The translations under genes were made by a program, and so were the position numbers. A stretch of DNA of 28,273 bases from a virus (lineage: Duplodnaviria > Heunggongvirae > Uroviricota > Caudoviricetes), in the IMG/VR virus record IMGVR_UViG_3300050821_010409, positions 94,160 through 122,432 of that record; one strand, 5' to 3'. Below the pieces are notes generated by a model. It did no database searches. It was not told where the DNA came from and was given only the letters and a program-made list of their open reading frames with translations. Shown here one piece after another: positions 939 to 27,660 of the stretch; within the stretch, counting starts at the first letter, position 1, and the number at the start of each line of letters is the position of its first letter.

Positions 939-1109
939 CTAGTCGTTCATCCCGGCGGCCTCGCGCAGCAGGCGTTGCCAGGCCGCGTTGTCAGTGATCG
1001 TGATGCCAGACGGCAGCGTCACGTTCGCGCCTGATGACCCTTGGGCCATCCGCAGGAAGCGCAGGTCATTGGCGCTCAGGTTCCAGGCGTGCAGCTCATT
1101 CAGGTTCAC
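939..1109 (-). CDS. hypothetical protein (56 aa, not in ORF track)
   Basis: GTG at 1109 after GAGGAAAAGGGAG RBS and repeat A1; MNLNELHAWNL...AGMND, TAG at 939-941. Confidence 0.65.
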   Translation of the reverse strand: MNLNELHAWNLSANDLRFLRMAQGSSGANVTLPSGITITDNAAWQRLLREAAGMND

Positions 1110-1139
1110 GGGCCTTCTCCCTTTTCCTCTTTCTTTTTC

Positions 1140-1200
1140 CAGGCTGAGTGCCTGCGGCCACGGGCGGAAGGTAATTCCCGCGCGTGACCGCCAGTGCTCA
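1140..1200 (-). repeat. structured intergenic repeat family A, copy 1
   Basis: plus strand CAGGCTGAGTGCCTGCGGCCACG...CGTGACCGCCAGTGCTCA; contains the TGA stop of the upstream gene. Confidence 0.9.
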
Positions 1201-1686
1201 GCGCCCCTTTTCCAGCTCCGCGAGCAGTGCCTGGATCAGAGTGGTCATCCGGTAGTCGTAGGCCGAGCCCGTGCCGTCATTGAGGTCGCAGTCCTCGTAG
1301 TAACGGTTAGCGACCTGTTCCCAGGCGGCCATGACCTGCTGGCGCGTCCAGGCTTCCGATAGCGGGGCTTGCGCGCCTGCGAGGGCTTCAGATAGCTGGG
1401 CTTGCGCGCCTGTGAGGGCTTCCTGGACGGAGTTGATGCCCGTTACCTGGAAGACGGAGGGCGTTTCCGGGGCATCATCCCGGATGACGGTGACGGTGTA
1501 GGCGTCAAGGCCACCGAGGAGGAAGCGCGCGGCAACCCGCATGAGCGGCGTCATGGATGCCCAGGACGGGAGCTTCCCGCCTGCCTGGATGGTGGCGATG
1601 ACCTGTTCTACCAGGGCGCGCTCGCGCGGGTCACCGATTTTCGCGGGCAGGGCTAGCGCCTCTGCCGGGTTCGGCTTCATCGCCAT
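1198..1686 (-). CDS. hypothetical protein with 11-aa tandem repeat
   Basis: 162 aa ORF with RBS AAAGGAAGTGAGG; 33-bp tandem duplication at 1351-1416. Confidence 0.75.
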   Translation of the reverse strand: MAMKPNPAEALALPAKIGDPRERALVEQVIATIQAGGKLPSWASMTPLMRVAARFLLGGLDAYTVTVIRDDAPETPSVFQVTGINSVQEALTGAQAQLSEALAGAQAPLSEAWTRQQVMAAWEQVANRYYEDCDLNDGTGSAYDYRMTTLIQALLAELEKGR

Positions 1687-1689
1687 TCC

Positions 1690-1884
1690 TCACTTCCTTT
1701 CCGCGGCGTCCATGGCCGCGCGGACAGCCGGGAAAAGGCCCGGCGGGATGAAGACTTCCAGGTCCTGGTCACTGCCAGGGCAGCTGATGAGAACGGAATT
1801 GTCCTCGCGGCTGACCTCGACGTCCTCGGTGTTCCCGTCGTCATCGCCGAGCCAGATGGTGAGCCGCTTGCCGTAGCTGGTCAT
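1690..1884 (-). CDS. hypothetical protein
   Basis: 64 aa acidic ORF; start overlaps upstream stop (ATGA). Confidence 0.7.
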   Translation of the reverse strand: MTSYGKRLTIWLGDDDGNTEDVEVSREDNSVLISCPGSDQDLEVFIPPGLFPAVRAAMDAAERK

Positions 1885-2198
1885 GGCGCGAAGTGCCTCC
1901 TGTCCTCGTGCGGGCAGGCCACCAGCCGGAGGTCATCGGCGATGGCGAGCACGTTGATGCCGCGCGGGTAGTGCGGGAAGTGCACGCCCACGGCACCCGG
2001 GCGGCGCGGGCCTGCGTCCACGACGGTCCCGGCCTTCCCGGAGAACTTGCCGTTCGGGTGCCCCCGGCGGACGTAGCGGACGGTGTCGCCTTCATGGACT
2101 TCCCATTGGGCATCGGCGTAGATCCTCATGGCGCGATCCCCGTGTCCCAGGAATAGGTTTCCGGCCCGTCTGCGCCTGCCTGGTAGCGGGCGACTCAC
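1881..2198 (-). CDS. hypothetical protein, possibly SH3/KOW-like beta barrel
   Basis: VHEGDTVRY...GKAGTVV...VGVHF pattern; alternative start ATG 2129. Confidence 0.6.
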   Translation of the reverse strand: MSRPLPGRRRRAGNLFLGHGDRAMRIYADAQWEVHEGDTVRYVRRGHPNGKFSGKAGTVVDAGPRRPGAVGVHFPHYPRGINVLAIADDLRLVACPHEDRRHFAP

Positions 2199-2542
2199 GC
2201 GCCGTAGCCGTCTCCGGTCAGGGCCCGGACGGCCTGGTCAATGACCCAGGCCTTGTGGTGCGCGCCGTCATCCTGGCCGTATTCACTGATGAGGCCGAGG
2301 GCGAGCTGGACGCGCTCGGCATCCGTCTCGCCGAGGTGCCGGGCGTAGATGGCCCACGTGCGCACGCCCCCGGTTTGCGCAGGGTTCAGCAGCCAGCCGT
2401 CCTCGTGCGGGACGGGCTGCCAGGCCGGGCTGTCCGGGTGCCCGCTGACGTAGGCGGCCAGGGCGACGGACGGGTGCGAGCTGACGATGACGGCAGCCGC
2501 GTCCGGGTGCTCCCAGTGGTACAGGTCATAGGTGACCTTCAT
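2195..2542 (-). CDS. hypothetical protein
   Basis: start moved to ATG 2542 (MKVTYDLY), which overlaps the upstream stop. Confidence 0.7.
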   Translation of the reverse strand: MKVTYDLYHWEHPDAAAVIVSSHPSVALAAYVSGHPDSPAWQPVPHEDGWLLNPAQTGGVRTWAIYARHLGETDAERVQLALGLISEYGQDDGAHHKAWVIDQAVRALTGDGYGA

Positions 2543-3099
2543 GGCAGCCACCCCAGCACCCTGGTGGTGACCAGTTCGTTCCACCGCGGGCTGCCCTTGT
2601 CCGGCAGTCCTTCGCCCTCGTCCAGGTCACTGTCGTCCACTTCGACGTCGGTGTACTGGGCGGCGATGACCTCGTTCACGTCAGCACCCGGGTGGTCCAG
2701 CAGGTAGAGCGCGGCGTTGACGACCAGGTTGACGACGTCGTCTTGCGCGATGGTGTCCTCGTTCTCGTACTCGTGGTCGGGCAGCAGGTCAGCTCCGCCG
2801 TTCACGGCTGCGGAAACCTGGTCGCGGGTGTAGTGCCCGGGGCCACTGGGGCTGACGTCCACGACCGCGTAGCCGGCAGCGTCCAGCTGGAGGGTGATGA
2901 AGCCGGCCGCCTCCTGTACCGTCATTTCAGCCCGGTCGTCTTCCAGGAGCGCGTGCGCTATGACGTCTTCCGGGTTACGGGGCAGCGTGCTCTCATTCGC
3001 CTCCCGGGCGCGTTCCGCGAGCTCGTGAAGATAACCTTTCCATTGATCGCGCGTGCCGTCCGGGTGCGCGCGCTGCCATTGGGTGAATTCCATGGCCAT
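2539..3099 (-). CDS. acidic hypothetical protein
   Basis: 186 aa, RBS GAGGAG, GC3-biased codons. Confidence 0.8.
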   Translation of the reverse strand: MAMEFTQWQRAHPDGTRDQWKGYLHELAERAREANESTLPRNPEDVIAHALLEDDRAEMTVQEAAGFITLQLDAAGYAVVDVSPSGPGHYTRDQVSAAVNGGADLLPDHEYENEDTIAQDDVVNLVVNAALYLLDHPGADVNEVIAAQYTDVEVDDSDLDEGEGLPDKGSPRWNELVTTRVLGWLP

Positions 3100-3301: not shown

Positions 3302-3577
3302 TTATGCTGTTGCGATCACGATGAGGACCGCGAGCACGGCCAGGATGACGAGCGCCATGATGAGGACGCCCTTAGGGGGCTGCTGCGCTGCAGGCTGGCC
3401 GTTTCCGGAGCGCTGCTGAAGCTGCCGGGTCCGCGCGTTGTAGCTGGCGTGGCTGGCTGCCTCGGCGGCGGTGACGATGCCGCTCAGGCCACCGGTGACA
3501 GCGAAGGCAGCGGCGTGCGCGGCCTTATGGCGGATCTTCTTGTCCTTGCGGGTGATGACGACGGGTGGCGTGCTCAT
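3302..3577 (-). CDS. small membrane protein
   Basis: 91 aa, C-terminal hydrophobic helix, RBS AAGGAAAGAG downstream of repeat A2. Confidence 0.75.
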   Translation of the reverse strand: MSTPPVVITRKDKKIRHKAAHAAAFAVTGGLSGIVTAAEAASHASYNARTRQLQQRSGNGQPAAQQPPKGVLIMALVILAVLAVLIVIATA

Positions 3578-3605
3578 GGGGTGCTTGCTCTTTCCTTTTT
3601 TCGTT

Positions 3606-3662
3606 CAGGCTGAGTGCCTGCGGCCACGAACGGGAATGCCCGCTCGTGACCGCCAGTGCTCA
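3606..3662 (-). repeat. family A repeat, copy 2
   Basis: CAGGCTGAGTGCCTGCGGCCACGAACGGG...CCCGCTCGTGACCGCCAGTGCTCA. Confidence 0.9.
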
Positions 3663-3676
3663 GCAGGGCGCACTGG

Positions 3677-6334: not shown

Positions 6335-6600
6335 GACGGCCGTGCTTCCTGCTGCGCCTCCTGCAGGGCCAGGGCCAGCTCGGCCTTGACGGCCCGCGCT
6401 CTTCGTCCCTTCTTGTGCTGCCCCTTCCAGCCCGCGGCGTAGCGCAGGAAAGCCGTGACGGCAGCCCTGCTGGCCGGGTCCGCTGGCCAGTCCGCGCAGG
6501 TCGTGGCCAGCATGCGGTCCACGAACGGCACCGCGCGCGGGTCCGGGTAGGGCCACCACTGGATGATCTCGCTGGCGATCACGCGAAGCGGGCGCGTCAT
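6331..6600 (-). CDS. phage-type hypothetical protein
   Basis: RPL..IA.EI...W....AVP....M...FL..A.GW.G...R.VKAEL pattern, which I recall from small phage proteins. Confidence 0.75.
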   Translation of the reverse strand: MTRPLRVIASEIIQWWPYPDPRAVPFVDRMLATTCADWPADPASRAAVTAFLRYAAGWKGQHKKGRRARAVKAELALALQEAQQEARPS

Positions 6601-6977
6601 CGCCCGGCTGCCCTTTCCTCCATCCGGGTCAGCAGCGTGGCCAGGAAGTCCGGGCTGATGTCCCAGGTGCGGGTCATGCGGTGCAGCTCCGGGTCACCGA
6701 ACAGCTGGCCGGACATGACGTACGCCACGATCGTCATGCCTGCCTCGCCAGCCTCGTCAATGACCTTGTCGGCCAGTTCCCGGTCCCGGATCACGGCATC
6801 GATGTCCTGCTTCCGGTCACGCTCGGCGCGCAGGACCTTGATGATGTACTCCGGCGTGGAGATGCCCTCGTGCCTGGCGTACATGAAAGCCGACATCAGC
6901 TCTATGCTCGTGCCAGCGTTCCGTGCCCGGTCAGCGGCCTCCAGGTCCTCGTACGTGAACTTCTCATCGTCATGCAT
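6597..6977 (-). CDS. hypothetical protein
   Basis: 126 aa, RBS AAAGGAAG downstream of repeat A3. Confidence 0.8.
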   Translation of the reverse strand: MHDDEKFTYEDLEAADRARNAGTSIELMSAFMYARHEGISTPEYIIKVLRAERDRKQDIDAVIRDRELADKVIDEAGEAGMTIVAYVMSGQLFGDPELHRMTRTWDISPDFLATLLTRMEERAAGR

Positions 6978-7010
6978 GGCGGTCTTCCTTTTCGTGGTGC
7001 CGTGTCATTC

Positions 7011-7067
7011 CAGGCTGGGCGCCTGCGGCCACGAACGGGAGTGCCCGCTCGTGACCGCCAGTGCCCA
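7011..7067 (-). repeat. family A repeat, copy 3
   Basis: CAGGCTGGGCGCCTGCGGCCACGAACGGG...GTGACCGCCAGTGCCCA. Confidence 0.9.
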
Positions 7068-7076
7068 GGAGGCGGG

Positions 7077-8375
7077 TTAGCTGGCCTTGCCGTAGAAGCC
7101 GGCGCCATCGAAGCTGATGGCTGTCCAGTCCGCGTCTCGCAGCTCTTCGGCCGCGCCGTCCCAGTCGATCAGGTTCAGTGGCCACGCGGTCAGGTCCGCG
7201 CGGTTGCCGAGCGCTTCCAGGGCCTCGTCCTGTGCCCAGCTCTCGGTGAAGAAGCCTTCCTCGCGCAGGGTCCAGGTGCTGCCGCCGAGCTCGCTGGCGG
7301 CACGGCTGGCCAGGTCGCGCAGCAGCCGCAGTTCCCGGTCCAGCTCAGCCCCTAGCATGACGTGGCGGATGGTGAAGCGGGCCGGGTTGAGGTCCTCGTC
7401 ATCGAGGTACCGCGTGCACTCTTGCTCGCTGCCTGCCTCGGTGAGGACGGCCTCTCCGTCACGGTTGCGGACGATCTCGAACCCTTCCAGGTTTTCCAGG
7501 TCCGCGATCCGGGCGTTCACGGCAGCGCTGGTGATCAGCACGCTGCGGGGGGTGATGCCGATGGCGGCTCCGCTCTCGCTGTCCGGCTCAATGGCGCGGA
7601 CGGGAAGGATTGCTGTAGTGCTAGTGGCTGGCTCGGGCGTGGCCGGCTTGCTGGCAAGCGTGATGTTCGGGCTTGCCAGGTCCAGGTAGTGATTGAAGCC
7701 CGGGACGCCGTTGCTGCCTTCCGACCGGACGGCCGTGCCGTTCCCGGCGGTCAGCTTGGGCGTGGTGAACCCCCGTTCGCCCTGCTGGAGGAGGGTGGCC
7801 GTGAAGTTTACGGTGATCGTGTCGCCTTCAGCCAGCTTGAATGGCTTCGGCATGCCGGTGAGCCCTTTGTAGGATGAGTCCGCGCTCAGGTACAGGCGGT
7901 GCGTGAAGCCCTGGTCGTCCTTGACCTGCCAGGTGCCCAGTGGCTGCCCGAACGAGGCGTCGGTGATGACCCCTGTGAACGCGGCGCGCACTGTGGTGCC
8001 GGGCGGGAAGTCCCGGGTGCCTGGCGCTGGCACGGGCGTGATGGACGGCGAGTCAAGGTTCAGGTAGTGGTAGTACTGCTGCCCGGCGGGACTGTCGCGT
8101 ACCTCCACCTTCGTGAGGCCGTCCCGGATGATGACGGGCGTGCCCGGGATCGTGGTGAGGAAGCGGACCTTGATGAGCTCGCCGGGCTTTCCTGACAGGG
8201 GGTCTCCCAGGACCTGCTTCCGGGAATCAGCGGTGCCGAGGTACAGGCAGTGGATGGTGCCGTTGCCAGGGCCTCCTTCTTCCCGGACCCGGGTTGTGGA
8301 CAGGGGACCAGCTGTCTCGCTCAGGACCATGGCCGTGAAGGCCACCTCGATGTCCTGGCCAGCTGCATATGCCAT
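7077..8375 (-). CDS. modular hypothetical protein: four beta-rich repeats plus acidic C-terminal domain (paralog of 8454..9482)
   Basis: repeats ..G..I.V.FT...H.LYL/HYL.L; C-terminus WPL..IDWD.AAEELRDADW. Confidence 0.85.
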   Translation of the reverse strand: MAYAAGQDIEVAFTAMVLSETAGPLSTTRVREEGGPGNGTIHCLYLGTADSRKQVLGDPLSGKPGELIKVRFLTTIPGTPVIIRDGLTKVEVRDSPAGQQYYHYLNLDSPSITPVPAPGTRDFPPGTTVRAAFTGVITDASFGQPLGTWQVKDDQGFTHRLYLSADSSYKGLTGMPKPFKLAEGDTITVNFTATLLQQGERGFTTPKLTAGNGTAVRSEGSNGVPGFNHYLDLASPNITLASKPATPEPATSTTAILPVRAIEPDSESGAAIGITPRSVLITSAAVNARIADLENLEGFEIVRNRDGEAVLTEAGSEQECTRYLDDEDLNPARFTIRHVMLGAELDRELRLLRDLASRAASELGGSTWTLREEGFFTESWAQDEALEALGNRADLTAWPLNLIDWDGAAEELRDADWTAISFDGAGFYGKAS

Positions 8376-8399
8376 GACGTTTTTCCCTTTCTTCTCTTT

Positions 8400-8456
8400 C
8401 AGGCTGGGCGCCTGCGGCCACGGGCGGGAAAGCCCGCCCGCGACCGCCAGTGCTCA
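8400..8456 (-). repeat. family A repeat, copy 4
   Basis: CAGGCTGGGCGCCTGCGGCCACGGGCGGG...GCGACCGCCAGTGCTCA; includes upstream stop. Confidence 0.9.
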
Positions 8457-9482
8457 GGCAGGCTGGCCGTAGTAGGAAAGGCCGTCAAAGGGCACGGGCG
8501 TCCAGCTTGCGTCCCGCAGCTCGAAGGCGGCGCGCTCCCAGTCGATGACCGACAGCGGCCATGCGTTCAGGTCGGCGCCCGCGCCCAGGATGGGGAGGGC
8601 CAGCCCCCGGGCCCAGCTCGCGTCGAAGTAATCGTCCTCGCGCAAGATCCACGAGCGCGTGCCCAGCCGGGCGAGGGCGCTCTCCTGCAGTGCCAGCAGC
8701 GATCCCAGTTCCGCGACCGTGTCCTCGTCCAGGTTCTCGCGGACGACGACGCGCTCGGGGTTCCAGTCCTCGTCCGTGATGAACGAGCGGCATGCTTCCT
8801 GGCTGCTGCCGGCGAAGAGCACCTCGCCCGTGCGGAGCCTGACGACCTCGTACCGCGAGACGGCAGTCAGCACGCCGATCCGGGCGCTGACGCCCGTGCT
8901 GGTGACTTCGGTGTCTTCATTGGTGATGGGGAGGCTCGCTGCCGTGGTGTACCCGGGTGGGGTCGCCGTCACCGTGCTCGTGCTGCCAGCGGCCCGGCGG
9001 GCGTCCAGGAGGGCTTGCGTGGCCACCATGGCCGGGCTGTCCGTTGTCAGTGCAGCCAGGAGGGCTGCTGCCTGTTCCCTGGTCGGTGCCGTCTCGGTGC
9101 CCGTGCTGTCCGGTTCTTCTGCGTCCGGCTTGCTGGCGACAGCCGTGATGAACGAGCTTGCCAGGTTCAGGTAGTGGAAGTAACCCTTGGACTCCACTTC
9201 CGTGGTCCCGGCGGGCGGGGTTTCCGTGGTTCCCTTGGGGGCGTCAGCGCGGGGGATGGTAGCCGTGAAGGACACCGTGACGCGCTCGCCGTCCCGTGGC
9301 TCGCGAGACAGCGGCCAGCGGTTCAGGACATCGTCCCGGGCCTCGAAGTCATCCAGGTACAGGTATTGCGTGAAGCCGTCAGGGTCCTTGACCGCGTAGG
9401 TGGCATTGATGAGATTGCCCGTGCTGTCGGTGATCTTTCCGGTGAACGCGACGCGGATCACGTCTCCTGGTTCATAAGGCAT
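8454..9482 (-). CDS. modular hypothetical protein: two beta-rich repeats plus acidic C-terminal domain (paralog of 7077..8375)
   Basis: start ATG 9482 after GAAAGG; shares HYL.LAS..IT..ASKP and ADL.AWPL..IDW..AA.ELRDA.W with neighbour. Confidence 0.85.
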   Translation of the reverse strand: MPYEPGDVIRVAFTGKITDSTGNLINATYAVKDPDGFTQYLYLDDFEARDDVLNRWPLSREPRDGERVTVSFTATIPRADAPKGTTETPPAGTTEVESKGYFHYLNLASSFITAVASKPDAEEPDSTGTETAPTREQAAALLAALTTDSPAMVATQALLDARRAAGSTSTVTATPPGYTTAASLPITNEDTEVTSTGVSARIGVLTAVSRYEVVRLRTGEVLFAGSSQEACRSFITDEDWNPERVVVRENLDEDTVAELGSLLALQESALARLGTRSWILREDDYFDASWARGLALPILGAGADLNAWPLSVIDWERAAFELRDASWTPVPFDGLSYYGQPA

Positions 9483-9511
9483 GTGCGTGCCCTTTCGTTG
9501 TCTCTTCTTCC

Positions 9512-9568
9512 CAGGCTGGGTGCCTGCGGCCACGGGCGGGGCATCCCGTCCGTGACCGCCAGCCGTCA
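9512..9568 (-). repeat. family A repeat, copy 5
   Basis: CAGGCTGGGTGCCTGCGGCCACGGGCGGG...CGTGACCGCCAG; ends in upstream stop. Confidence 0.9.
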
Positions 9569-10936
9569 GCTGCTGACCGCGCTCAGCATGGTGGCCAGGG
9601 CCGCGGTCCGGGGGCCGAGCCGGAACATCGCCACGCTGCTGGCGTCTTCTGCCGCGAGGCCCGCGGCGCGCTCGGCGTCGGTGAACCCGATGCCGGCGGC
9701 AGGCCCGATCCGGTAGGACTCGATGGGTGATGCTTGCGCTGCCAGCACCGGGCCATTACTGCTGCTGCGCCCGCGCCCGCGCCGGGGGCCATAGCTGAGC
9801 GAGTCGGTCAGCGCGGGCAGCATGTAGCCTGTGCACTGGATGGCCAGGTCGTAGGTGCGGTCATTGACCAGCACGCCACCGGGCACCGGCACCGGGTAGC
9901 CGGACTGCCCGGCCAGCCGCAGCCGGGTGCTCGGGCTGCTGGCGTTGCCTTCCAGGTACTGGGCCAGCCGCAGGTACCGGCCGCGCTTGCCCTCCCGGAA
10001 TTCGGAGCACGTCAGGCCGCTCAGGGCCGGCGCGTAGACGTCCACGCGCTGCACGCAGTCCAGTCCGATGGTGGAGGTGTGGCCAGGGGCGAGGCCCAGC
10101 AGGGACTCGGCAGCGCACAGCCCGCTGTTGCCGCCGCCGATGATCGCCACCTGAGCCAGCCCGCGCAGCGGGAACGGGGTGCCCATCCGGGCCATGAACT
10201 GCGGGAAGCTCAGTATCCGCTCGCCGTCGCCCTTGCTGGCCGGGTTGCCCAGGCCGCGCGCGTCCAGCACCCGGGCGCAGGAGAGGGTGCCTTCATTGGT
10301 GGCCAGCGTTATGGACTTGCCGCTGGGGCTGCTGACCCTGCCGCTGATGCTGGTGACGGTGACGCCCGGGGTCACGTCCGCGAATTGCGCCAGCAGCAGC
10401 CGGACCAGCCAGGCCACCAGGGCGTTGTCCGCGTACTCCTGTGAGGTGAGCATGGCCAGCGGCGGGAAGCCCGTCCCGGCCGGGAAGAAGTTCAGCCCCT
10501 TGTCCTGGTCAGGCAGCCCGGACGGGCCGGGCCGGTTGCGGGAGTTCAGCCAGAACACGGGCTGCATGCTCATCGCGAAGGCGCCCCCGACGCTCTCTGG
10601 CTCATTGCGCTCCAGGACGACGGGCTTGGGGAAGCCGGCCATGACGCGGCTGGCTGCGTAGACGGCCGCGTGGTAGCCGCCGCCGATGATGACCTCCCGG
10701 CCAGCCAGGTTCGTGAAGGCAGCTGCTGGCGGGCGCGACCAGTACTGCGTGAGCGCTGCCGTCATCAGCTGGCGCGCTTCGGGGACCATGGCGATCCCGG
10801 CCAGCTGCATTTCCGTCATGCTGGCGAAGTCGGCGGCGCGGGACGCGCACAGGGTGATCCCCTCCGACAGCCGCTTCTTGTCCAGGCACTGCTCGATCAC
10901 GTCCCGGATGACCGGGGCCAGTTCAGGCTCTGCCAT
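9566..10936 (-). CDS. FAD/NAD(P)-binding flavoprotein (monooxygenase/oxidoreductase-like)
   Basis: two dinucleotide-binding motifs VIIGGGYHA and VAIIGGGNSG, plus DARGLG and YDLAIQCTGY; start ATG 10936 after AGAAAGGA. Confidence 0.7.
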   Translation of the reverse strand: MAEPELAPVIRDVIEQCLDKKRLSEGITLCASRAADFASMTEMQLAGIAMVPEARQLMTAALTQYWSRPPAAAFTNLAGREVIIGGGYHAAVYAASRVMAGFPKPVVLERNEPESVGGAFAMSMQPVFWLNSRNRPGPSGLPDQDKGLNFFPAGTGFPPLAMLTSQEYADNALVAWLVRLLLAQFADVTPGVTVTSISGRVSSPSGKSITLATNEGTLSCARVLDARGLGNPASKGDGERILSFPQFMARMGTPFPLRGLAQVAIIGGGNSGLCAAESLLGLAPGHTSTIGLDCVQRVDVYAPALSGLTCSEFREGKRGRYLRLAQYLEGNASSPSTRLRLAGQSGYPVPVPGGVLVNDRTYDLAIQCTGYMLPALTDSLSYGPRRGRGRSSSNGPVLAAQASPIESYRIGPAAGIGFTDAERAAGLAAEDASSVAMFRLGPRTAALATMLSAVSS

Positions 10937-10969
10937 TGCCGTGTTCCTTTCTTGTCGTGTCCGCTTGTC

Positions 10970-11034
10970 CTGGCCGGACAGCAAGAAGCCCCTTTCCTGC
11001 GGTCAGGAAAGGGGCTTCCGGGCTGACGGGCCAG
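10970..11034 (-). repeat. family B hairpin (divergent copy)
   Basis: 14-bp stem GAAGCCCCTTTCCT/AGGAAAGGGGCTTC flanked by CAGC-AA and CGG-GCTG as in other B copies. Confidence 0.7.
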
Positions 11035-11737: not shown

Positions 11738-12046
11738 CTAGCCAGCCGTCTCTCGCGGGATGCGCTCGGCCAGCATGTCCACTAGCTCGCGGGTGCTGAG
11801 CAGGAGCGCCAGCCGCTTGACCAGGCCGCGCGGGCCGATCCGCCGGGTGACTTCCCGTTCCAGGTCCCGGGTGCTGATGCAGTCCAGCCCGGTGAACTCC
11901 CCGATCCGGAATACCGCCAATGGCGCCCGGGTGAGCTGCGAGGATTCCGTGCCGAGCGTGCTGAATTCCAGCGTCCCGTCATTCCTTACTTCTGCGTGAA
12001 CAGTCCCGTCCTTGCCTGCGTGCAAGTGCAGGTACATGAATCCCAT
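11738..12046 (-). CDS. hypothetical protein
   Basis: start moved to ATG 12046 after AGAAAGGGAAAG RBS. Confidence 0.7.
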   Translation of the reverse strand: MGFMYLHLHAGKDGTVHAEVRNDGTLEFSTLGTESSQLTRAPLAVFRIGEFTGLDCISTRDLEREVTRRIGPRGLVKRLALLLSTRELVDMLAERIPRETAG

Positions 12047-12079
12047 GACTTTCCCTTTCTCTTTTCTTTCCGGTGCGTG

Positions 12080-12138
12080 GCGTAAGCCCGTGGCCAGCGG
12101 CCCCGCGATGAGGGAGCCGCTCGCCATCAGCCGGCGCT
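12080..12138 (-). repeat. family C hairpin repeat, copy 1
   Basis: plus strand GCGTAAG...TGGC-hairpin-GCCATCAGCCGGCGCT. Confidence 0.65.
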
Positions 12139-12669: not shown

Positions 12670-12673
12670 GTTG

Positions 12674-17515: not shown

Positions 17516-17555
17516 GACTGCTGGCTTCCTTTCTTGGTTGCGCTTGCATCGCCTG

Positions 17556-17630
17556 CTGACGGCAGGCAGCGAAACGGCCCGCTTCCCCCCGTGGTGCAGG
17601 AAAAGCGGGCCGCTCGGGCTGCCTGGTCAG
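17556..17630 (-). repeat. family B hairpin
   Basis: CTGAC..CAGGCAGC-GA-AACGGCCCGCTT...AAGCGGGCCGCT-CGG-GCTGCCTG-GTCAG; includes upstream stop. Confidence 0.8.
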
Positions 17631-17815
17631 GTGGCTGGCAGGGCCTGCCCGGTTCTTGCGGCATCGATCTTGGCCTTCATGGCGGCCTGCCAGTCAGTTA
17701 GGGGCCTGGTCCCGATGCCAGCGAGCTGCGCGTGCACCCACAGGTGGTGGGCGTGCGCGGTCCCGCATGCGGTGCAAGTACCGTCAGGCGCCAGCCAGTG
17801 GATCCCGTTCTTCAT
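17627..17815 (-). CDS. small CxxC protein
   Basis: 62 aa, CTAC..H.HH; ATGA overlap with upstream gene. Confidence 0.65.
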   Translation of the reverse strand: MKNGIHWLAPDGTCTACGTAHAHHLWVHAQLAGIGTRPLTDWQAAMKAKIDAARTGQALPAT

Positions 17816-19077
17816 GCTGCTGCCCTGTCTCTTTTCTCAGCCTGCTCCTGGGCGAAGAGGCTCGCGTGCTGCCGCGTGCTCAGGATCAGGGACCTGCTGC
17901 CGCTGTACTGCGTGGCGAGGTCTTCAGGCGCGACGAGGTAGCCACTGTCGTTGTTCACGTACATGGAGCTGCAGCTGAACCCGATCTTGCGGTAGGTCCA
18001 GCCCGCCAGGTGCGCCATGACCCGGGGCGCCGCGTAGCCTTCCAGCTCGCCGTACCCGTTGAACACCGCGAAGGCGTCCGGTGCCAGGGTCTCGAATGTC
18101 GGCGCTAGCCTCCCGTTCCCGGCCCGGCGCAGTGGCATGACCCAGGCCCGGCCGGAGACCGATCCCCATTGGTCGAACGTCCGCAAGCCGAAGCCGCCGT
18201 TGGTCTTCAGCACGCACCGGCTTTCCCGGTAGTTGCTCCACCAGCAGGAATCCCTGTGGTAGAAATCCCCGGGCGGGCGGTTCAGGTCCCGGGTGACGTC
18301 GATCGTGACGGTCACGGGGTTGCTGTGGTCGCGTGCGATGCTGCCGACGTGCGACAAGTCAGCAGGCGCGAGCTTGTCGCCGAACTTCTTGTAGGCGAGG
18401 CTGCTCAGTCGCTTGGCGAAGTTTCCCGCCGGGGTCTGCCACTGGTTGCCCAGTGCCGGCAGGTCCCTGCTGAGGAGCCGGCGCCCGGCGTAGTCCAGGT
18501 AAGCGCGGATGTCTTCGAGCCCCTCGGCGGAGATGACGCCGCCGGGCAGCGCGACCGTGGTTCGCACGTTATTGGCCAGCGTCGCGTCGCCGTCATTGCG
18601 GATGCTGAACGCGCGCAGGGGGGAATAGCAGCAGGAACCGAGGTCGTCACCGTGCTCGTGGTGGTGGGTGTCGCCTGCGTCGTAGTAGCCGCCACAGTCA
18701 GCGCAGTGCTGGTAGTGGCGGCCCAGGCAGTCCAGGCAGACGTGGTTGCCGTCCAGCACCTGGGTGAACCCCGGGAGCCGGCTGGCGCACCGGGAGCACT
18801 CACGCCAGGCATTCCAGCAGGCCGGGCATGCCAGCCGGCCATTACCGTACGCGAGCAGTGAGTACCCCCATGCGGGAATGGTGCAGTTACTGCAGGACAC
18901 GAGGGTGTCCACCGCATCCGGGTCGCTGACCAGCGTCTTCAGGTACAGCTGGAATTCCGCGAGCGACCTTGCGTACGATACCCATGAGGTGCCCCAGAAG
19001 GGGGCCCACAGTGCGGGCAGGTCCAGTTCGCTGGCCGGTACCCGGGTGACGGCTGCCTCTTCACCTTCTTCTGCCAT
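17812..19077 (-). CDS. multi-CxxC protein with SCWW/GRAW domain (paralog 3 of 3)
   Basis: start moved to ATG 19077 after AGAAAGGAAG; six CxxC pairs then conserved domain. Confidence 0.85.
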   Translation of the reverse strand: MAEEGEEAAVTRVPASELDLPALWAPFWGTSWVSYARSLAEFQLYLKTLVSDPDAVDTLVSCSNCTIPAWGYSLLAYGNGRLACPACWNAWRECSRCASRLPGFTQVLDGNHVCLDCLGRHYQHCADCGGYYDAGDTHHHEHGDDLGSCCYSPLRAFSIRNDGDATLANNVRTTVALPGGVISAEGLEDIRAYLDYAGRRLLSRDLPALGNQWQTPAGNFAKRLSSLAYKKFGDKLAPADLSHVGSIARDHSNPVTVTIDVTRDLNRPPGDFYHRDSCWWSNYRESRCVLKTNGGFGLRTFDQWGSVSGRAWVMPLRRAGNGRLAPTFETLAPDAFAVFNGYGELEGYAAPRVMAHLAGWTYRKIGFSCSSMYVNNDSGYLVAPEDLATQYSGSRSLILSTRQHASLFAQEQAEKRDRAAA

Positions 19078-19117
19078 GACAGGCGCTTCCTTTCTTGGTT
19101 GCCGTGCGGGTGCGTCC

Positions 19118-19185
19118 CTGACCGGGACAAGGAAAGCGCCCGTTTCCCCTTGCCGGGAAAGCGGGCGCTTAGCTTCTGGGGTCAG
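19118..19185 (-). repeat. family B hairpin
   Basis: CTGACC...AAGCGCCCGTTTCCC...GGGAAAGCGGGCGCTT...GGTCAG; includes upstream stop. Confidence 0.85.
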
Positions 19186-19580
19186 AAAGCAGCGCTGATT
19201 TTCTTCCAGATGGCGGGGAATGGCGTAGCCTGGTCGTTCAGCGTGGCGAGCGTGGTGTATTCCGGACGGCTGCTGCTCATCCAGATCCGGGGGTTGGGGG
19301 AAGGCAGCTGCGCCCATTCCACGATGGCCTGGGGCAGTACCTCGCTGTCGGCATCGGTGGCGTCCGTGACGCTGACATACTGGTAGATGTTGCTGCCCGG
19401 GATGAGCTCACGCCGCACGATTCCTGCCAGCACTCCCCGTTCGCACAGGCCGCCGAGGCAGCAAAATGTGTCATTGCTGCCATCGGTGGCAGCGCCTGCA
19501 TGGCGCAGCGCGCCGCCTCCTTGCCGGTTGGCGTTGGCGAGCAGCCATTCGCCCCACTCGGCCTTGATTTCCGGGTTCAT
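19182..19580 (-). CDS. CCLG-motif phage-type hypothetical protein (tandem paralog 1 of 3)
   Basis: MNPEIKAEWGEWLLANA...TFCCLGGLCE. Confidence 0.85.
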   Translation of the reverse strand: MNPEIKAEWGEWLLANANRQGGGALRHAGAATDGSNDTFCCLGGLCERGVLAGIVRRELIPGSNIYQYVSVTDATDADSEVLPQAIVEWAQLPSPNPRIWMSSSRPEYTTLATLNDQATPFPAIWKKISAAF

Positions 19581-19609
19581 TTCCGGTTTTCCTTTCTTGT
19601 TTGCCGTGC

Positions 19610-19633
19610 CAGGCAGCCGGGGCTGCGAGTCAG
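19610..19633 (-). repeat. shrunken family B derivative (outer stem only)
   Basis: CAGGCAGC-CGGG-GCTGC..GTCAG resembles the flanks of copy 17556-17630 without the inner stem; includes upstream stop. Confidence 0.55.
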
Positions 19634-20007: not shown

Positions 20008-20055
20008 TTCCTGTTTTCCTTTCTTGCGCATTGCTTTGACGGCTAGGGCAGCGCG

Positions 20056-20436
20056 TCAGAAAGCGGCGTTGATCCTGTCCCAGATGACCGGGAAGGGGAT
20101 CGTGTTATCGTTCATCACGGTGAGCGTGTAACCCGAGGATGTCAGGGGGTTGACGGAGGGCAGCTCAGCCCATTCCACGATTGCCCGGGGCAGCCTGACC
20201 GTGCTGACGTCGGTGGCGTCCGTGACGCTGGTGTACTGGTAGAGGCGGCTGCCCGGGATGAGCTCACGCCGCACGATGCCGGCAGCCGCGCCTAGCTCGC
20301 ACAGGCCGCCGAGGCAGCAGAAGGTGTCATCGCTGCCGTCTGGGGCTGCGCCTGCACGATGCAGTGCGCCGCCCCCTTGCTTGCCGGCGTTGGCGAGCAG
20401 CCATTCGCCCCACCCGGCCTTGATGTCCTGGTTCAT
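20056..20436 (-). CDS. CCLG-motif hypothetical protein (tandem paralog 3 of 3)
   Basis: start ATG 20436 after AAGGAAGGAAAAAG; TFCCLGGLCE. Confidence 0.85.
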   Translation of the reverse strand: MNQDIKAGWGEWLLANAGKQGGGALHRAGAAPDGSDDTFCCLGGLCELGAAAGIVRRELIPGSRLYQYTSVTDATDVSTVRLPRAIVEWAELPSVNPLTSSGYTLTVMNDNTIPFPVIWDRINAAF

Positions 20437-20470
20437 TGTGCTTTTTCCTTCCTTGCGCGTTGCCCTGCTG

Positions 20471-20523
20471 GACAGCAAAGCGCTCCGTTCCCGGCAGGCG
20501 GGAGCGGAGCGCTAGGGCTGCTC
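20471..20523 (-). repeat. family B hairpin
   Basis: CAGC-AA-AGCGCTCCGTTCCC...GGGAGCGGAGCGCT-AGG-GCTG. Confidence 0.85.
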
Positions 20524-20538
20524 ATCAGGAGGCTAGCG

Positions 20539-21360: not shown

Positions 21361-21681
21361 TTAGCGGATGTCGCTGGCGTAGTGATAGTGGTTTGCTGCC
21401 TTGTACATCGCTTCGCCGGCTACAGCGGCCGTTGCGTCAGCAGTCAGCCGCACCCGGTCCAGGTCCTGCTCCAGGGCCAGCCTCGCGAGCTCCTCCACGA
21501 CAGCCTGGCGTGCGAGTTCTTCTCGCAGCTGCGTGACTGTGGCCTCTAGCGCTGCGATGCGCTGCTGCTCGCGCTTGAGGACGGTAGCAAATTGCTCTTG
21601 CTGGCTGGCTATCGCTGCCGCGCCGTGGCGCAGCCGGGAGGTGATTCCTTCCAGCTCAGACACGCGCTCGTCCAGGGTCAT
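21361..21681 (-). CDS. coiled-coil protein
   Basis: 106 aa with heptad-like L/E/R/Q pattern; RBS AGAAAGGAGAG. Confidence 0.75.
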   Translation of the reverse strand: MTLDERVSELEGITSRLRHGAAAIASQQEQFATVLKREQQRIAALEATVTQLREELARQAVVEELARLALEQDLDRVRLTADATAAVAGEAMYKAANHYHYASDIR

Positions 21682-21708
21682 GACGCTCTCCTTTCTTTTC
21701 CCGTTATC

Positions 21709-21769
21709 CAGGCTGGGTGCCTGCGGCCGTGCACGGGGAGTTGCCCCCGTGCACGACCGCCAGTATCCG
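21709..21769 (-). repeat. family A repeat, copy 8
   Basis: CAGGCTGGGTGCCTGCGGCCGTGCACGGGG...CCCCGTGCACGACCGCCAGTATCC. Confidence 0.9.
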
Positions 21770-22256: not shown

Positions 22257-22276
22257 GGCGTTTCCTTTCTCCTGTG

Positions 22277-22334
22277 CAGGCTGGGTGCCTGCGGCCGTGC
22301 ACGGGAATTGCCCGTGCGCGACCGCCAGTACCCT
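22277..22334 (-). repeat. family A repeat, copy 9
   Basis: CAGGCTGGGTGCCTGCGGCCGTGCACGGG...CCCGTGCGCGACCGCCAGTACCC. Confidence 0.9.
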
Positions 22335-22794: not shown

Positions 22795-22827
22795 GGTGAT
22801 GACCTTTCTCGGTTTCGTGCGTGGCCG

Positions 22828-22853
22828 TGACCGGGCAGGTGCCCGGGGGTCAG
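22828..22853 (-). repeat. shrunken family B derivative (outer stem only)
   Basis: TGACCGGGCA-GGT-GCCCGG-GGGTCAG resembles flanks of copies 23149 and 24614; includes upstream stop. Confidence 0.55.
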
Positions 22854-23148: not shown

Positions 23149-23214
23149 CTGACCGGGCAGTGAAGCGCTCCGTTCCCGTGGACGGGGAGCGGAGCGCTCG
23201 GACTGGCTGGTCAG
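23149..23214 (-). repeat. family B hairpin
   Basis: CTGACC.GGCAGT-GA-AGCGCTCCG...CGGAGCGCT-CGG-ACTG.CTGGTCAG. Confidence 0.9.
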
Positions 23215-23228: not shown

Positions 23229-23579
23229 TCAGGGCTTCACTGACGGGATGCTTGTGCGAGTGCTGCCCCTGTAGTGCCAGGCTGAGCCCATGCCCAGGCA
23301 GGACGTGCATGTCCTCGCGTTGGCGAGCGGCCCTTGGATGATGCCGTGGGCCTTGGCCGTGTTCGATCGCGTCCTGTAGAACGACCTGTGCTCCAGGGGG
23401 ATGGGAGACCCGTCGATCATGACGGCACCGCAGCCCTCGCAGGGCCCGCATTTCTTCCACAGGGGCTTTTCTTCGCTTGCCCAGAGCGTGTGCCTCACGT
23501 AGGCGCGGATGAGCAGGCAGCTCGCTAGCCCGCTTGTTCCCAGGAAGGCGATGCCTGCCAGGATAAGGTGCGTTTCCAC
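23229..23579 (-). CDS. membrane-anchored CxxC zinc-finger-like protein
   Basis: N-terminal hydrophobic helix; CEGCG and CTSCLG motifs; GTG start after AGAAGAAAAG. Confidence 0.65.
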   Translation of the reverse strand: METHLILAGIAFLGTSGLASCLLIRAYVRHTLWASEEKPLWKKCGPCEGCGAVMIDGSPIPLEHRSFYRTRSNTAKAHGIIQGPLANARTCTSCLGMGSAWHYRGSTRTSIPSVKP

Positions 23580-24054: not shown

Positions 24055-24122
24055 GCCCGTGATCAGGCAATGAAGCGCTCCGCTTTCCTGCTCAGGGAGA
24101 GCGGAGCGCTCGGATTGCCGGG
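24055..24122 (-). repeat. family B hairpin, identical to 25046-25113
   Basis: 68-nt exact match by eye; GGCAAT-GA-AGCGCTCCGCT...AGCGGAGCGCT-CGG-ATTGCC. Confidence 0.95.
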
Positions 24123-24129
24123 CCCGGGA

Positions 24130-24613: not shown

Positions 24614-24685
24614 CCCTGACTGGGCAATGAAGCGCTCCGCATCCCACGGCTAGGGAAGCGGAGCGCTCGGATTGCCGGGTCAGGG
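24614..24685 (-). repeat. family B hairpin
   Basis: CCCTGAC.GGGCAATGAAGCGCTCCGC...GCGGAGCGCTCGGATTGCCGGGTCAGGG; includes upstream stop. Confidence 0.9.
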
Positions 24686-25018
24686 ATGGGTGACGCTGAC
24701 TGGCCCGTTCGTCGTCTGGATCACGACGGCAGGGTCCTTGCCGGAGCGGGTGACCCACTGGTAAGGCGTGCCGTTCTTCGGGCACTGCGGGTCATCGGGC
24801 GTGACGGTCGTGTTGCCGTCCCCCTGGTCCAGCAGCAGGCCGTCCGTGCCGAAGCACGCGAAGTACAGCGTGACGACCGATGGCGGAGTTTCCAGGCGGT
24901 GCCAGTGGACCACGATGTCCTGCTGCGGGTTGGGCGCGTCGTGGTTCGTGCTGGAGCATGAGCACATTCCTGCCATGAGGGCGGCAGCTGCGCTCCATCC
25001 GAGGATGGCTTTCTTCAT
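24680..25018 (-). CDS. putative lipoprotein
   Basis: MKK + hydrophobic core + MCSC lipobox-like site. Confidence 0.75.
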   Translation of the reverse strand: MKKAILGWSAAAALMAGMCSCSSTNHDAPNPQQDIVVHWHRLETPPSVVTLYFACFGTDGLLLDQGDGNTTVTPDDPQCPKNGTPYQWVTRSGKDPAVVIQTTNGPVSVTHP

Positions 25019-25045: not shown

Positions 25046-25117
25046 GCCCGTGATCAGGCAATGAAGCGCTCCGCTTTCCTGCTCAGGGAGAGCGGAGCGC
25101 TCGGATTGCCGGGTCAG
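25046..25117 (-). repeat. family B hairpin, first 68 nt identical to 24055-24122
   Basis: exact repeat; includes upstream stop at 25114. Confidence 0.95.
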
Positions 25118-25302
25118 TGGCTTGCTACCTCGATGAAGTGCGCGGCCCCGTCCTTGGTGGAGTAATAGGCGAAGCGCGCGCTGCCGAGGAGGGCAAACGC
25201 TTCCCGGATGGTCGTTGCGTACATGTTCAGGGAATAGCCTGTTCCGTACGTGATGATGGCTGGCTCACTGGCGTGCTGGTCAGCCCATGCCTGGTCGGGC
25301 AT
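25114..25302 (-). CDS. hypothetical protein (62 aa)
   Basis: start moved to ATG 25302 after GAGGAAAGGA. Confidence 0.7.
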   Translation of the reverse strand: MPDQAWADQHASEPAIITYGTGYSLNMYATTIREAFALLGSARFAYYSTKDGAAHFIEVASH

Positions 25303-25342
25303 TGCCGGAGTCCTTTCCTCGTGGGTGGCTGTGCGCTTTCTT

Positions 25343-25404
25343 GCGTAAGGGACATGGCGAGTGACTCCGGTACCAGCGGAATCACTCGCCATGAGCCCGG
25401 CGCT
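25343..25404 (-). repeat. family C hairpin repeat, copy 2
   Basis: GCGTAAG...ATGGCGAGTGA/TCACTCGCCAT (11-bp stem)...GAGCCCGGCGCT. Confidence 0.75.
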
Positions 25405-25893: not shown

Positions 25894-26000
25894 GTTTCCC
25901 TGCATATGCGCGGTCCCTTTGCTACTCTGTCCCGCTTTCCGGTCTTCTCCGCTGCCAGGGCGGACTCTGCCGAGCTTTCATTTTCGCGGGCGTCCGTGCG

Positions 26001-26047
26001 TGGCACCCAGCGGAGTCGAACCGCTGCGCGTGCTTTCCCCCGGTGCC
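26001..26047 (-). ncRNA. tRNA-like element 2 (47 nt minihelix)
   Basis: GGCACC-15 nt-CAGCGG-TTCGACT-CCGCTG-GGTGCC-A. Confidence 0.6.
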
Positions 26048-26054
26048 GTTACTG

Positions 26055-26270: not shown

Positions 26271-26509
26271 CGCGTGACTGTCCTGATCTCGGTGGCGTGC
26301 AGGGCGAAGTCGCGCAGCAGGGCACCGTAATCCCAGTAGCAGGACTGGCCGATGGGCAGGTTTTCGCCATCGAATGCTTCGAATGCCATGAAGCGTGCTT
26401 TCTTGAAACAGTAATCACAGCTATGACGCCAGCGGCGCAGGGGATTGGGCTTGGCGTGCTTGCTGCGCTTGATGACCCGTTTCCTGAGCAGGATGATCAG
26501 CAACTTCAT
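26267..26509 (-). CDS. basic CxxC protein (80 aa)
   Basis: start ATG 26509 overlapping upstream stop; SCDYCF...CYWD. Confidence 0.65.
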   Translation of the reverse strand: MKLLIILLRKRVIKRSKHAKPNPLRRWRHSCDYCFKKARFMAFEAFDGENLPIGQSCYWDYGALLRDFALHATEIRTVTR

Positions 26510-26892
26510 GACGTGGCCTGCCCTTCGCGCCGTTCCAGTTCCTGGAATTCCGCGATGGCTTGCGCCCACGCCTGCGGGAACGTGACCTTGATGTAGCCAG
26601 TCAGCCACGCGAGCGCGTGCAGTTCGCTGACCGTGACGTCAGGGCAGCTGGCGATGTGCGGCCTGCTGTGGCACTCGTACAGTCCTGAGAGCGCGTCGTG
26701 CATTCCCCTGCTGAACGCTTCAGGTCCTGGCTGCGCTTGCGCGCCTGCGTACCGGTCAGCGATGGCGTCAAGGTGGCGCCAGTTACCCTGGCTGATGATG
26801 CACTCGACGGTGCGGGCTTTCTCGTCATCGGTGCCCGTCCAGGCATAGCACAGCAGCCAGCGCCGGACGACATCTTCTGAGAGCGTGCTCAT
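26506..26892 (-). CDS. hypothetical protein
   Basis: 128 aa, RBS AGAAAGGAG. Confidence 0.8.
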   Translation of the reverse strand: MSTLSEDVVRRWLLCYAWTGTDDEKARTVECIISQGNWRHLDAIADRYAGAQAQPGPEAFSRGMHDALSGLYECHSRPHIASCPDVTVSELHALAWLTGYIKVTFPQAWAQAIAEFQELERREGQATS

Positions 26893-26938
26893 GGTGTTTT
26901 CTCCTTTCTCGTGTTCCTTGCGTGCCTTGTTTCCTGCG

Positions 26939-27005
26939 GCGTAAGGTCATGGCCAGCGATTTCCCTGTGCTGTCCTTGGGAGATCACTGGCCATGAGCCG
27001 GCGCT
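26939..27005 (-). repeat. family C hairpin repeat, copy 3
   Basis: GCGTAAG-G-TCATGGCCAG/CTGGCCATGA (10-bp stem)-GCCGGCGCT. Confidence 0.75.
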
Positions 27006-27030
27006 GCTGGTCATCGGTGAAGCGGCAGCC

Positions 27031-27558
27031 TCACCACGACTCCTCGGCAACGATTGTCCACGTGAACAGGTAGCGCGGGTCATAGTGCCTGCTGCATTCC
27101 GCGCAGCTCATGGTCTTGGCTGCTCGCGTTAGCCGGTGGCGTCGCAGGACGTGGCCGTTAGGGCAGGTGCCCCGGTACGTGCCCGCGATGGCGAGCTCAT
27201 CATCAAAGCACCGCTCCGGGTTCGCGCCGATCAGCACGCACATGTGCCGCCATTCCTGGTCATGGCCGCCGGTGGTGAGCGCGTGCGCGATCTCGTGCAG
27301 GATGACGTCCTTGATCATGGCGTAGTTTCCGGCACGCTGCCATTTCGTCATGATTGGCGCGCTCAGTCCGATCACCGGGATTTCCCGGCGGCACACGCCG
27401 GCCCGCTGCTTGCTCTCGTCAAACGCCAGCGTCCAGTCGCCGATGTCGTGCACGATCATGAGTGGCTCTGCCATCTCGCGGACGCCGCGTGGTTCTGGCG
27501 TCGTCCCGGTGACGAGGGTCGCTCCCATGCTCGCCAGGAAGTCCGGCATTGCCGCCAT
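27031..27558 (-). CDS. SprT-like zinc metalloprotease
   Basis: FD....RAG.C, VILHEIAHAL (HExxH), GHDQEW, C-terminal CPNGH...CAEC, as expected for the SprT family. Confidence 0.85.
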   Translation of the reverse strand: MAAMPDFLASMGATLVTGTTPEPRGVREMAEPLMIVHDIGDWTLAFDESKQRAGVCRREIPVIGLSAPIMTKWQRAGNYAMIKDVILHEIAHALTTGGHDQEWRHMCVLIGANPERCFDDELAIAGTYRGTCPNGHVLRRHRLTRAAKTMSCAECSRHYDPRYLFTWTIVAEESW

Positions 27559-27599
27559 CGTGATTCACCTCATTTCCTTGGTTCCTGCGTTGCCAGTAC

Positions 27600-27660
27600 C
27601 GGGCTGAGTGCCCGTGGCCGCACGCGGGAGCGTTTTCCCGCGCGCGACCATGGATGCTCA
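27600..27660 (-). repeat. family A repeat, copy 10 (divergent, with compensatory changes)
   Basis: CGGGCTGAGTGCCCG-TGGCCGCACGCGGGA...TCCCGCGCGCGACCA-TGGATGCTCA; includes upstream stop. Confidence 0.8.

Follow-up and report, generated by a model that had tools for sequence, protein, structure and literature searches.

The early and late mRNAs of bacteriophage T7 are cut by RNase III at homologous intercistronic hairpins, and these sites (R0.3, R0.5, R1, R1.1, R1.3 and others, some ten or more) are imperfect stems with internal distortion that lie in mRNA sense and lack a U-tract. In actinophages, start-associated intergenic repeats have been described as SAS/ESAS in Cluster K mycobacteriophages and Cluster EF Microbacterium phages, along with intergenic inverted repeats of 17-18 bp in Clusters O and EG (PMC3203893, PMC7302621). 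SAS/ESAS are imperfect inverted repeats of ~17 bp with a spacer of 4-13 bp, and they carry an unusually conserved 13-bp ribosome-binding motif, GGGATAGGAGCCC or GGGAAAGGACCCC (PMC3203893, PMC7302621). Here we describe an array of intergenic hairpins in the final 28,273 bases (94160-122432; hereafter the window) of one virus record of 122,432 bp, IMGVR_UViG_3300050821_010409, which has ~67% G+C. The hairpin-bearing arm spans ~36 kb, its non-structural genes all read in one direction, and it belongs to an uncultured siphovirus from soil whose host is probably an actinobacterium. The best reading is that these hairpins are a variant of the actinophage start-associated repeats that would work most like the T7 RNase III sites, and we hold with moderate confidence that they act in cis, as RNA elements of the 5' leader that serve processing, stability or insulation.

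With the T7 sites, the hairpins share their intercistronic place, mRNA sense, the lack of a U-tract, and an imperfect, internally distorted stem at least some two helical turns long. They differ in that there are four families, that the stems are longer and more GC-rich, that a stop codon is often embedded, that they are linked to the downstream gene, and that the host is actinobacterial. The likeness to SAS/ESAS extends to a position in the non-structural arm of an actinophage, a single orientation, short gaps 5' of start codons, inverted arms with a variable spacer, and retention where the flanking genes differ. However, the hairpins have no similarity to GGGATAGGAGCCC or GGGAAAGGACCCC; the arm-specific motif at the ribosome-binding site, GAAAGG(A), may be a counterpart of the conserved SAS/ESAS motif but is shorter and not limited to genes with a hairpin. 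In further contrast to SAS/ESAS, the spacer of ~26-40 nt is itself a covarying stem-loop, the whole element being a hairpin of 25-30 bp, and the four families with their embedded upstream stop occur in uncultured phages of 110-122 kb.

Repeat finding, folding of every intergenic gap and one nhmmer model per family, built from the window copies, together identify 11 copies of family A, four of B, five of C and three of D in the window, 23 hairpins in all. Each is in mRNA sense on the minus strand, as are all of the window genes. Gene calls are our own and based on G+C content at third codon positions (GC3), and small genes and start codons are provisional. A twenty-fourth hairpin, of family A, lies outside the window at genome positions 90755-90820, and nhmmer found no significant copy in the rest of the genome (the other 90 kb). 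The original prediction, made from the letters of the window, had counted at least 22 structured intergenic repeats of three families in a single orientation relative to transcription, and had proposed a genome-wide map of them. That map now stands at 23 plus one; the repeats and their orientation hold, and the number of families becomes four, the earlier B comprising B and C and the earlier C corresponding to D. The stems have minimum free energies of -39 to -54 kcal/mol and z scores of -4.6 to -8.7, with none of 200 shuffles equalling them; weaker z scores were obtained for one D copy (12077-12138, z=-2.35) and a degenerate A copy (28016-28075, z=-4.1). Every hairpin lies between called genes, in gaps of 78-178 nt, whereas elsewhere genes mostly overlap or are separated by <60 nt, with 18 junctions tightly coupled at <=15 nt.

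The folding of the family A element is supported by compensatory changes among 40 aligned copies from seven contigs (the phage record itself, in the window and next to it, plus six contigs from metagenomes). In family A, a conserved lower stem, CUGAGCACUGGCGGUC...GGCCGCAGGCRCUCAG, carries a variable upper stem and loop, and a 3' CCUG is conserved as well. A model of 23 pairs (6 + 2 + 15) accounts for this alignment, in that 92% of cells pair, compared with 31-44% in slid-partner controls, and two-sided changes occur at 12 of the 23 pairs (in 74 cells, where 27 would be expected). Two U.G pairs are nearly invariant (38/40 and 35/40), and the lower stem holds two conserved 1x1 mismatches, A.C and G.A. 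The conserved arms are ~17-19 nt long and inverted, and the ~26-40 nt between them form the covarying stem-loop mentioned above. In one relative, L014, eight aligned A copies (of nine matches) share one compensatory variant, GGCGAUC...GGUCGC, in which a G-C pair has become A-U, and across genomes positional orthologues keep their own idiosyncratic variants. The other families have three-tier stems: B and C share a common CUGACC...GGUCAG base and D has flanks of its own, and in all families the stem is imperfect and 25-30 bp long. These features would be those of an element that acts as folded RNA, and the sense strand folds better in nine of the 11 family A copies of the window.

The hairpins are closely tied to both ends of the junctions in which they lie. 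A UGA is present in the stem base of families A, B and C and is the stop codon of the upstream gene in roughly half of the copies; among A copies across genomes, the UGA of the CUGAG motif is the upstream stop in about 16 of 33 that could be scored. Among the stops that had been predicted to lie within repeats, those at 1198, 8454, 9566 and 27658 (A), 17627 and 19182 (B), and 24680 and 25114 (C) were found there. Read-through or recoding at the embedded UGA was considered and rejected, multiples of three making up 9 of 19 hairpin gaps in a hand count, which is no different from one third. On the other side, each hairpin is followed, as originally described, by a purine-rich ribosome-binding site and a start codon, the distance from hairpin to start being 19-71 nt and mostly 25-46 nt. 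The arm has its own Shine-Dalgarno flavour: when the 22 nt 5' of start codons are scored, GAAAGG occurs upstream of 42% of arm genes and 5% of genes elsewhere, while genes outside the arm favour GGAGG. For the longer GAAAGGA, the 36-kb arm has 29 occurrences in its sense strand, and the other 86 kb have five on both strands together. This motif also precedes arm genes that have no hairpin, and GAAAGG(A) complements the very 3' terminus of the 16S rRNA of actinobacteria.

Comparison with relatives indicates which of the two neighbouring genes the hairpin belongs to. An exact 25-base A pattern matched several JGI metagenome contigs, including L012, which is syntenic with the window and has six A copies, and no IMG/VR contig. 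Another relative is a 109.7-kb contig, R13, which encodes the closest homologue (66% identical) of the flavoprotein gene at 9566-10936 and whose 40-kb arm was rebuilt from three metagenome-contig retrievals. Its arm proteins are 35-87% identical to those of the window, and all four families recur there (14 A, three or four B, two C and two D copies; one count gives 21), all in the sense strand and all within the first 29.6 kb of the arm, as in the window. Two more distant relatives, L016 and L017, have no hairpin copies. At the 15 gene junctions conserved between the window arm and R13, the presence and family of the hairpin agree in all 15 (four with, 11 without; p=0.0007), showing that the hairpins are stably inherited and do not hop. 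Where a gene identified by reciprocal best hits has changed its neighbour, the upstream hairpin is of the same family in 11 cases and discordant in four, whereas the downstream hairpin matches in three and is discordant in nine (Fisher p=0.02). The hairpin is thus inherited with the gene that follows it, although it is nearer to, or overlaps, the preceding stop codon. This agrees with the earlier suggestion that the duplicated unit is the repeat plus its following gene, which had been drawn from paralogues behind the same family: A precedes both 8454 and 7077, and B precedes 17812, 16487 and 14062.

No hairpin of any family is followed by a U-tract, the sequences that follow being A/G-rich spacers. 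Within the window, terminator-like sites are no more frequent than expected by chance, with none on the repeats, and the same genome does possess canonical U-tract terminators, which a structure-only scan of all intergenic gaps places at module ends. One of these, at genome 86149-86223 (L005:6149-6223), is a two-way intrinsic terminator consisting of an A-tract, a GC hairpin and TTTTTTATTT; it sits exactly at the boundary between the leftward arm and the rightward replication module and marks the end of the 36-kb transcription block. Since mycobacterial RNA polymerase needs a U-tract for termination in vitro (PMC3993855), the hairpins are most likely not intrinsic terminators. They could nevertheless be U-less terminators or attenuators, I-shaped or factor-dependent, that lower expression stepwise and are perhaps relieved by a phage antiterminator. 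Strong GC-rich stems at or just past stop codons would suit such a role, as would Term-seq results for Streptomyces, where highly structured 3' ends without U-tracts have been likened to I-shaped terminators (PMC8269248); those 3' ends may, however, arise by processing. Two further observations make termination unlikely: with no recognisable promoters between them, 24 consecutive terminators would leave the distal genes silent, and the hairpins track the downstream gene and not the gene they would end. Sigma-70-like sites are at or below chance in the 28-kb window, and none of the 19-71-nt purine-rich spacers contains a -10-like hexamer.

The original prediction had left open whether the repeats serve to process or stabilise mRNA, act as points of recombination through which genes are shuffled, or do both. 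Its RNA part is sustained by mRNA sense, by compensatory changes and U.G pairs in family A, by the lack of U-tracts and by positions conserved in a diverged relative; its recombination part has anecdotal support, from three junctions that look like exchange within repeats of the same family. In one, where R13/L013 has a single A copy, the window has two (22275 and 21705), one on either side of a two-gene insert; in another, the A hairpin of the flavoprotein gene is joined to a different downstream gene in L013; and in the third, the unit of an A hairpin and gene 12143 has been relocated. Repeat-mediated shuffling thus happens, and the dominant pattern is otherwise. The arm is mosaic throughout, and gene order has changed at 18 of 22 junctions with a hairpin and at 27 of 37 without (p=0.54); when only junctions where both genes have homologues are considered, the figures are 5/9 and 5/15 (p=0.40). 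Enrichment of gene-order breaks at the hairpins, expected if they were the breakpoints among relatives, was therefore not found.

These results bear directly on the view that the hairpins are primarily recombination sites of mobile cassettes, as are integron attC sites or the promoter early stem-loops (PeSL) of T4-type phages, with shuffling as the selected function. The three exchange-like junctions speak for it, as do the fact that each paralogue has its own hairpin of the same family and an exact 68-bp duplicate within family C (24055-24122 and 25046-25113) that brackets a 991-bp two-gene module; one contig, from run X4, reads from 25045 back to 24055 across this duplicate, which could represent a tandem extra copy or an assembly ambiguity. 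On the other hand, gene-order change is not enriched, the hairpins are stable at conserved junctions, and no enzyme for such a role has been recognised. A Pfam search of ~89 proteins found no tyrosine or serine recombinase (no match to Phage_integrase, Resolvase or Recombinase), no HUH transposase, no RNase III and no dsRNA-binding domain, and the integration-and-excision category of PHROGs, applied to 20 of the proteins, returned only the TnpB/Cas12-like protein. The earlier statement that the window has no recombinase is accordingly borne out and extends, at the Pfam level, to the rest of the genome.

The polarity of the unit is also at odds with a cassette origin. Like attC sites, the hairpins are palindromes of imperfect symmetry, conserved in their outer parts and variable in the centre, with some bases unpaired, and they lie at gene boundaries near stop codons; unlike attC sites, they stand 5' and not 3' of their gene, have no GTTRRRY core and no integrase, and remain stable at orthologous junctions. 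With the T4-type PeSL they share a repeated stem-loop placed, within a plastic region, ahead of small genes that are not essential, the unit of repeat plus following gene, and repeats usable as homology for shuffling, but there is no promoter motif beside the stem in a scan for sigma-70-like consensus, and shuffling is not enriched. A primary role in recombination is in our estimation distinctly unlikely.

Among the contigs from four soil DNA runs (X1-X4), one from run X3 joins window positions 14208-14519 to 16930-17981, that is, two of the three paralogous genes of 340-430 aa at homologous positions. This joint, 17981 to 14208, indicates a population variant produced by recombination between paralogues, away from the hairpins. 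This joint and the one across the 68-bp C duplicate are the better supported; most of the joints in these contigs have a short side of ~21 nt and are not trusted.

It is also conceivable that the hairpins are selfish palindromes, like repetitive extragenic palindromes (REP) or miniature inverted-repeat transposable elements (MITE), that spread in intergenic DNA and have no role for the phage. Such elements would account for several families, for lineage-specific variants within a genome (GATC/GGTC in the eight aligned L014 copies) and for the intergenic placement, and GC-rich extragenic palindromes after stop codons are indeed typical of REP and of bacterial interspersed mosaic elements (BIME), which can stabilise upstream mRNA. 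Yet no presence/absence polymorphism is seen at the 15 conserved junctions, orthologous copies keep their idiosyncratic variants, and families persist at matching places despite protein identities of 35-87%. A host REP or MITE scattered regardless of gene boundaries also fits poorly with the exact A pattern, which matched only twice in 185,579 species genomes, both times without a hairpin. Unlike REP/BIME, moreover, the hairpins are linked to the downstream gene and show no insertion polymorphism, and neither an HUH nor a RAYT transposase was found, which together make a selfish origin highly improbable. Least credible of all is the idea that they are double-stranded DNA operators for a repressor or activator of the phage, comparable to the stoperators known from Cluster A mycobacteriophages, which would suit the conserved inverted half-sites of ~17-19 nt, many in one arm, and the several helix-turn-helix proteins in the genome, but not a variable spacer that self-pairs through compensatory changes unneeded by a DNA-binding dimer, nor conserved U.G pairs and mismatches that make the arms imperfect complements, nor sites that avoid promoter-like contexts.

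The absence of U-tracts, the compensatory folding and the inheritance with the following gene narrow the function to processing, stability or insulation in the 5' leader. Each unit consists, in order, of the upstream stop (often a UGA within a CUGA...UCAG stem base), the imperfect hairpin of 25-30 bp, an A/G-rich single-stranded spacer, mostly of 25-46 nt, with a GAAAGGA-type Shine-Dalgarno sequence, and the start codon, the hairpin being functionally and evolutionarily part of the gene that follows. In the mechanism that we consider most likely, the long transcript would be cut at or beside the dsRNA-like stems, as at the T7 RNase III sites, or exonucleases would be halted there. The downstream cistron, or a translationally coupled group of cistrons, would thereby have its end protected and its ribosome entry site shielded from translation upstream. 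Being sequence repeats of 55-80 nt, the stems probably also provide homology for the occasional cassette-like gain, loss or relocation of hairpin-plus-gene units, as a by-product and not a primary role. Cleavage, effects on stability and the acting strand are what we infer from these features.

Several observations weigh against a 5'-leader element processed in the manner of T7. The lower stem and the 3' CCUG are conserved beyond what RNase III requires, and since this enzyme needs little sequence specificity, it leaves that conservation unexplained, which suggests a sequence-specific partner or gene conversion among the copies. The antisense strand folds as well as or better than the sense strand in families C and D, and better in all five C copies, so that the acting strand of C and D rests solely on orientation; over all families there is no strand difference (p=0.58), and the use of sense-versus-antisense stability as proof of the acting strand is valid for family A only. 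All genes of the arm point one way, and orientation relative to transcription is therefore inseparable from the direction of replication or of DNA injection. The promoter scan covered sigma-70-like consensus only, and internal promoters of another type are compatible with its result. Finally, the shrunken copies show that a hairpin can be lost without obvious harm. As a candidate for the partner protein, the product of 13095-13949, the most conserved arm protein, was tried and gave no usable Atlas match.

If the conservation does reflect specific partners, a bolder view, which we put forward only tentatively, would be that the four families are hairpin "dialects" read by sequence-specific phage or host factors, as portable modules marking regulatory classes in the 36-kb transcript. 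Such a module may comprise a stop for the upstream gene, an insulator or processing stem, a GAAAGGA start site and the gene itself. CRISPR repeats and tRNA-like minihelices would then be further punctuation systems in the same genome, making three in total. The 36-nt CRISPR repeat of this phage occurs in ten solitary copies, some intergenic and others within genes, at genome 14146-73315 (L001-L004). They are in the sense of the local gene, and several stand directly 5' of start codons; the copy at 47468-47503, for instance, abuts the ATG at 47504. No copy is present in the hairpin-bearing arm or the window, and the CRISPR repeats and the hairpins therefore occupy complementary modules of one genome. 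The tRNA-like minihelices, at window positions 25906-26054 and 28235-28273, have an acceptor-like stem of GGCACC/GGUGCC and a T-arm with a GGUUCGACUCC-type loop; the former lies in a gap of 149 nt not far from where the arm starts, and the latter is at the extreme end of the contig, which terminates in a run of 16 C that is possibly an assembly artefact. Minihelices of this kind are minimal substrates of RNase P, and these could thus serve as a further processing signal. Searches of the window with Rfam at the gathering threshold and with a tRNA scan gave no match.

Along the minus strand of the window, the individual hairpins are placed as follows, each recognised by nhmmer. The A hairpin at 1136-1201 (E=8e-17, z=-4.6) holds in its UGA the stop of gene 1198-1686 and is followed by gene 939-1109, and that at 3603-3663 (E=7e-18, with a supporting fold) is 5' of gene 3302-3577. 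The A hairpin at 7007-7068 (z=-6.2) is 5' of gene 6597-6977, and R13 has an A hairpin at the same junction. At 8397-8457, the UGA of an A hairpin is the stop of gene 8454-9482, with the paralogue 7077-8375 downstream. The flavoprotein gene, 9566-10936, ends in the UGA of the A hairpin at 9509-9568, an A hairpin also being present after this gene in R13/L013, L012 and L014, and begins behind the B hairpin at 10960-11030, which R13 has in the same place. The third copy of family D, at 12077-12138 and 5' of gene 11738-12046, is a weak nhmmer match with the weak z score given above and is recognised by its shared flanks. Two A hairpins follow: the one at 12612-12670 (z=-6.3) precedes gene 12143-12586, the hairpin and gene being found as a unit elsewhere in R13, and the one at 13977-14038 precedes gene 13095-13949, whose product is 87% identical in R13.

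The remaining B hairpins each stand before one of the three paralogues: 15372-15439 (z=-8.7) before 14062-15348; 17550-17625 (z=-5.4) before 16487-17515, with the stop of gene 17627-17815 at its base; and 19107-19185 before 17812-19077, with the stop of gene 19182-19580 at its base. Between tandem DUF8296 paralogues lie two shrunken, C-like remnants on the same strand, which no longer fold: 19581-19629 (z=+1.2) keeps the C flanks, and 20008-20055 (z=-0.3) has the same flanks as the C hairpin at 20466-20526 (z=-5.2), which is 5' of gene 20056-20436. A third element, the mini hairpin at 22795-22849 with a TGACC...GGTCA base, is not significant (z=-1.7) and looks like a reduced copy of the B/C type, so that two or three shrunken copies, where two had been predicted, can be located. 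The A hairpins at 21705-21768, 5' of gene 21361-21681, and at 22275-22334 flank the two-gene insert that is missing from R13.

Four more C hairpins lie towards the start of the arm. The one at 23149-23213 (z=-6.2) comes after gene 23229-23579, and that at 24060-24124, also detected by repeat finding, largely coincides with one half of the exact duplicate. At 24616-24682 (z=-7.2), the base CCUGAC...GUCAGG holds the stop of gene 24680-25018, and at 25051-25116 the stop of gene 25114-25302 is at the base. The D hairpins are at 25330-25399 (z=-5.0) and 26930-27009 (z=-4.9), the latter 5' of gene 26506-26892, whose R13 homologue is likewise preceded by a D hairpin. An A hairpin with a divergent lower stem at 27597-27661, supported by its fold, contains in its UGA the stop of gene 27658-27807, and the degenerate A-like hairpin at 28016-28075 (E=0.03) lies near the genome end, 5' of the first small gene of the arm.

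The record as a whole encodes a tape-measure protein of 1,985 aa, a head-tail adaptor, helicases and the TnpB/Cas12-like protein, and its SNF2 helicase is ~30% identical to counterparts in cultured actinophages. DNA of the window is found in soil metagenomes. GenBank phages gave no match to 25 kb by megablast or to one A and one C copy by blastn, and a query with the AAA_25 protein found no relative among viral contigs. The best-conserved marker of the phage group is the flavoprotein, a stand-alone FAD/NAD(P)-binding protein with more than 100 metagenomic homologues at 50-66% identity, several of them on contigs of 110-144 kb, and with chromosomal homologues in Micromonosporaceae at ~40% identity. 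These more distant homologues, together with Ku and Pup genes in relatives, make an actinobacterial host likely. The genes for Ku and Pup-like proteins are at L016:15958-16776, L016:17881-18072, L017:5765-6556, L017:7851-8039 and L014:19861-20616, which hints at a phage group that manipulates host pupylation and end-joining.

Start-associated intergenic repeats of actinophages have been described for over a decade; what is new here is the evidence of folding, the lack of a U-tract in a genome that does have U-tract terminators, and the inheritance of the hairpin with the gene that follows it. If the proposed mechanism is true, it would explain how genes are expressed at individually tuned levels along the long, promoter-poor arms of such phages. 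The hairpins would then also be small insulator parts that can be moved between constructs for polycistronic expression in actinobacteria of high G+C content.

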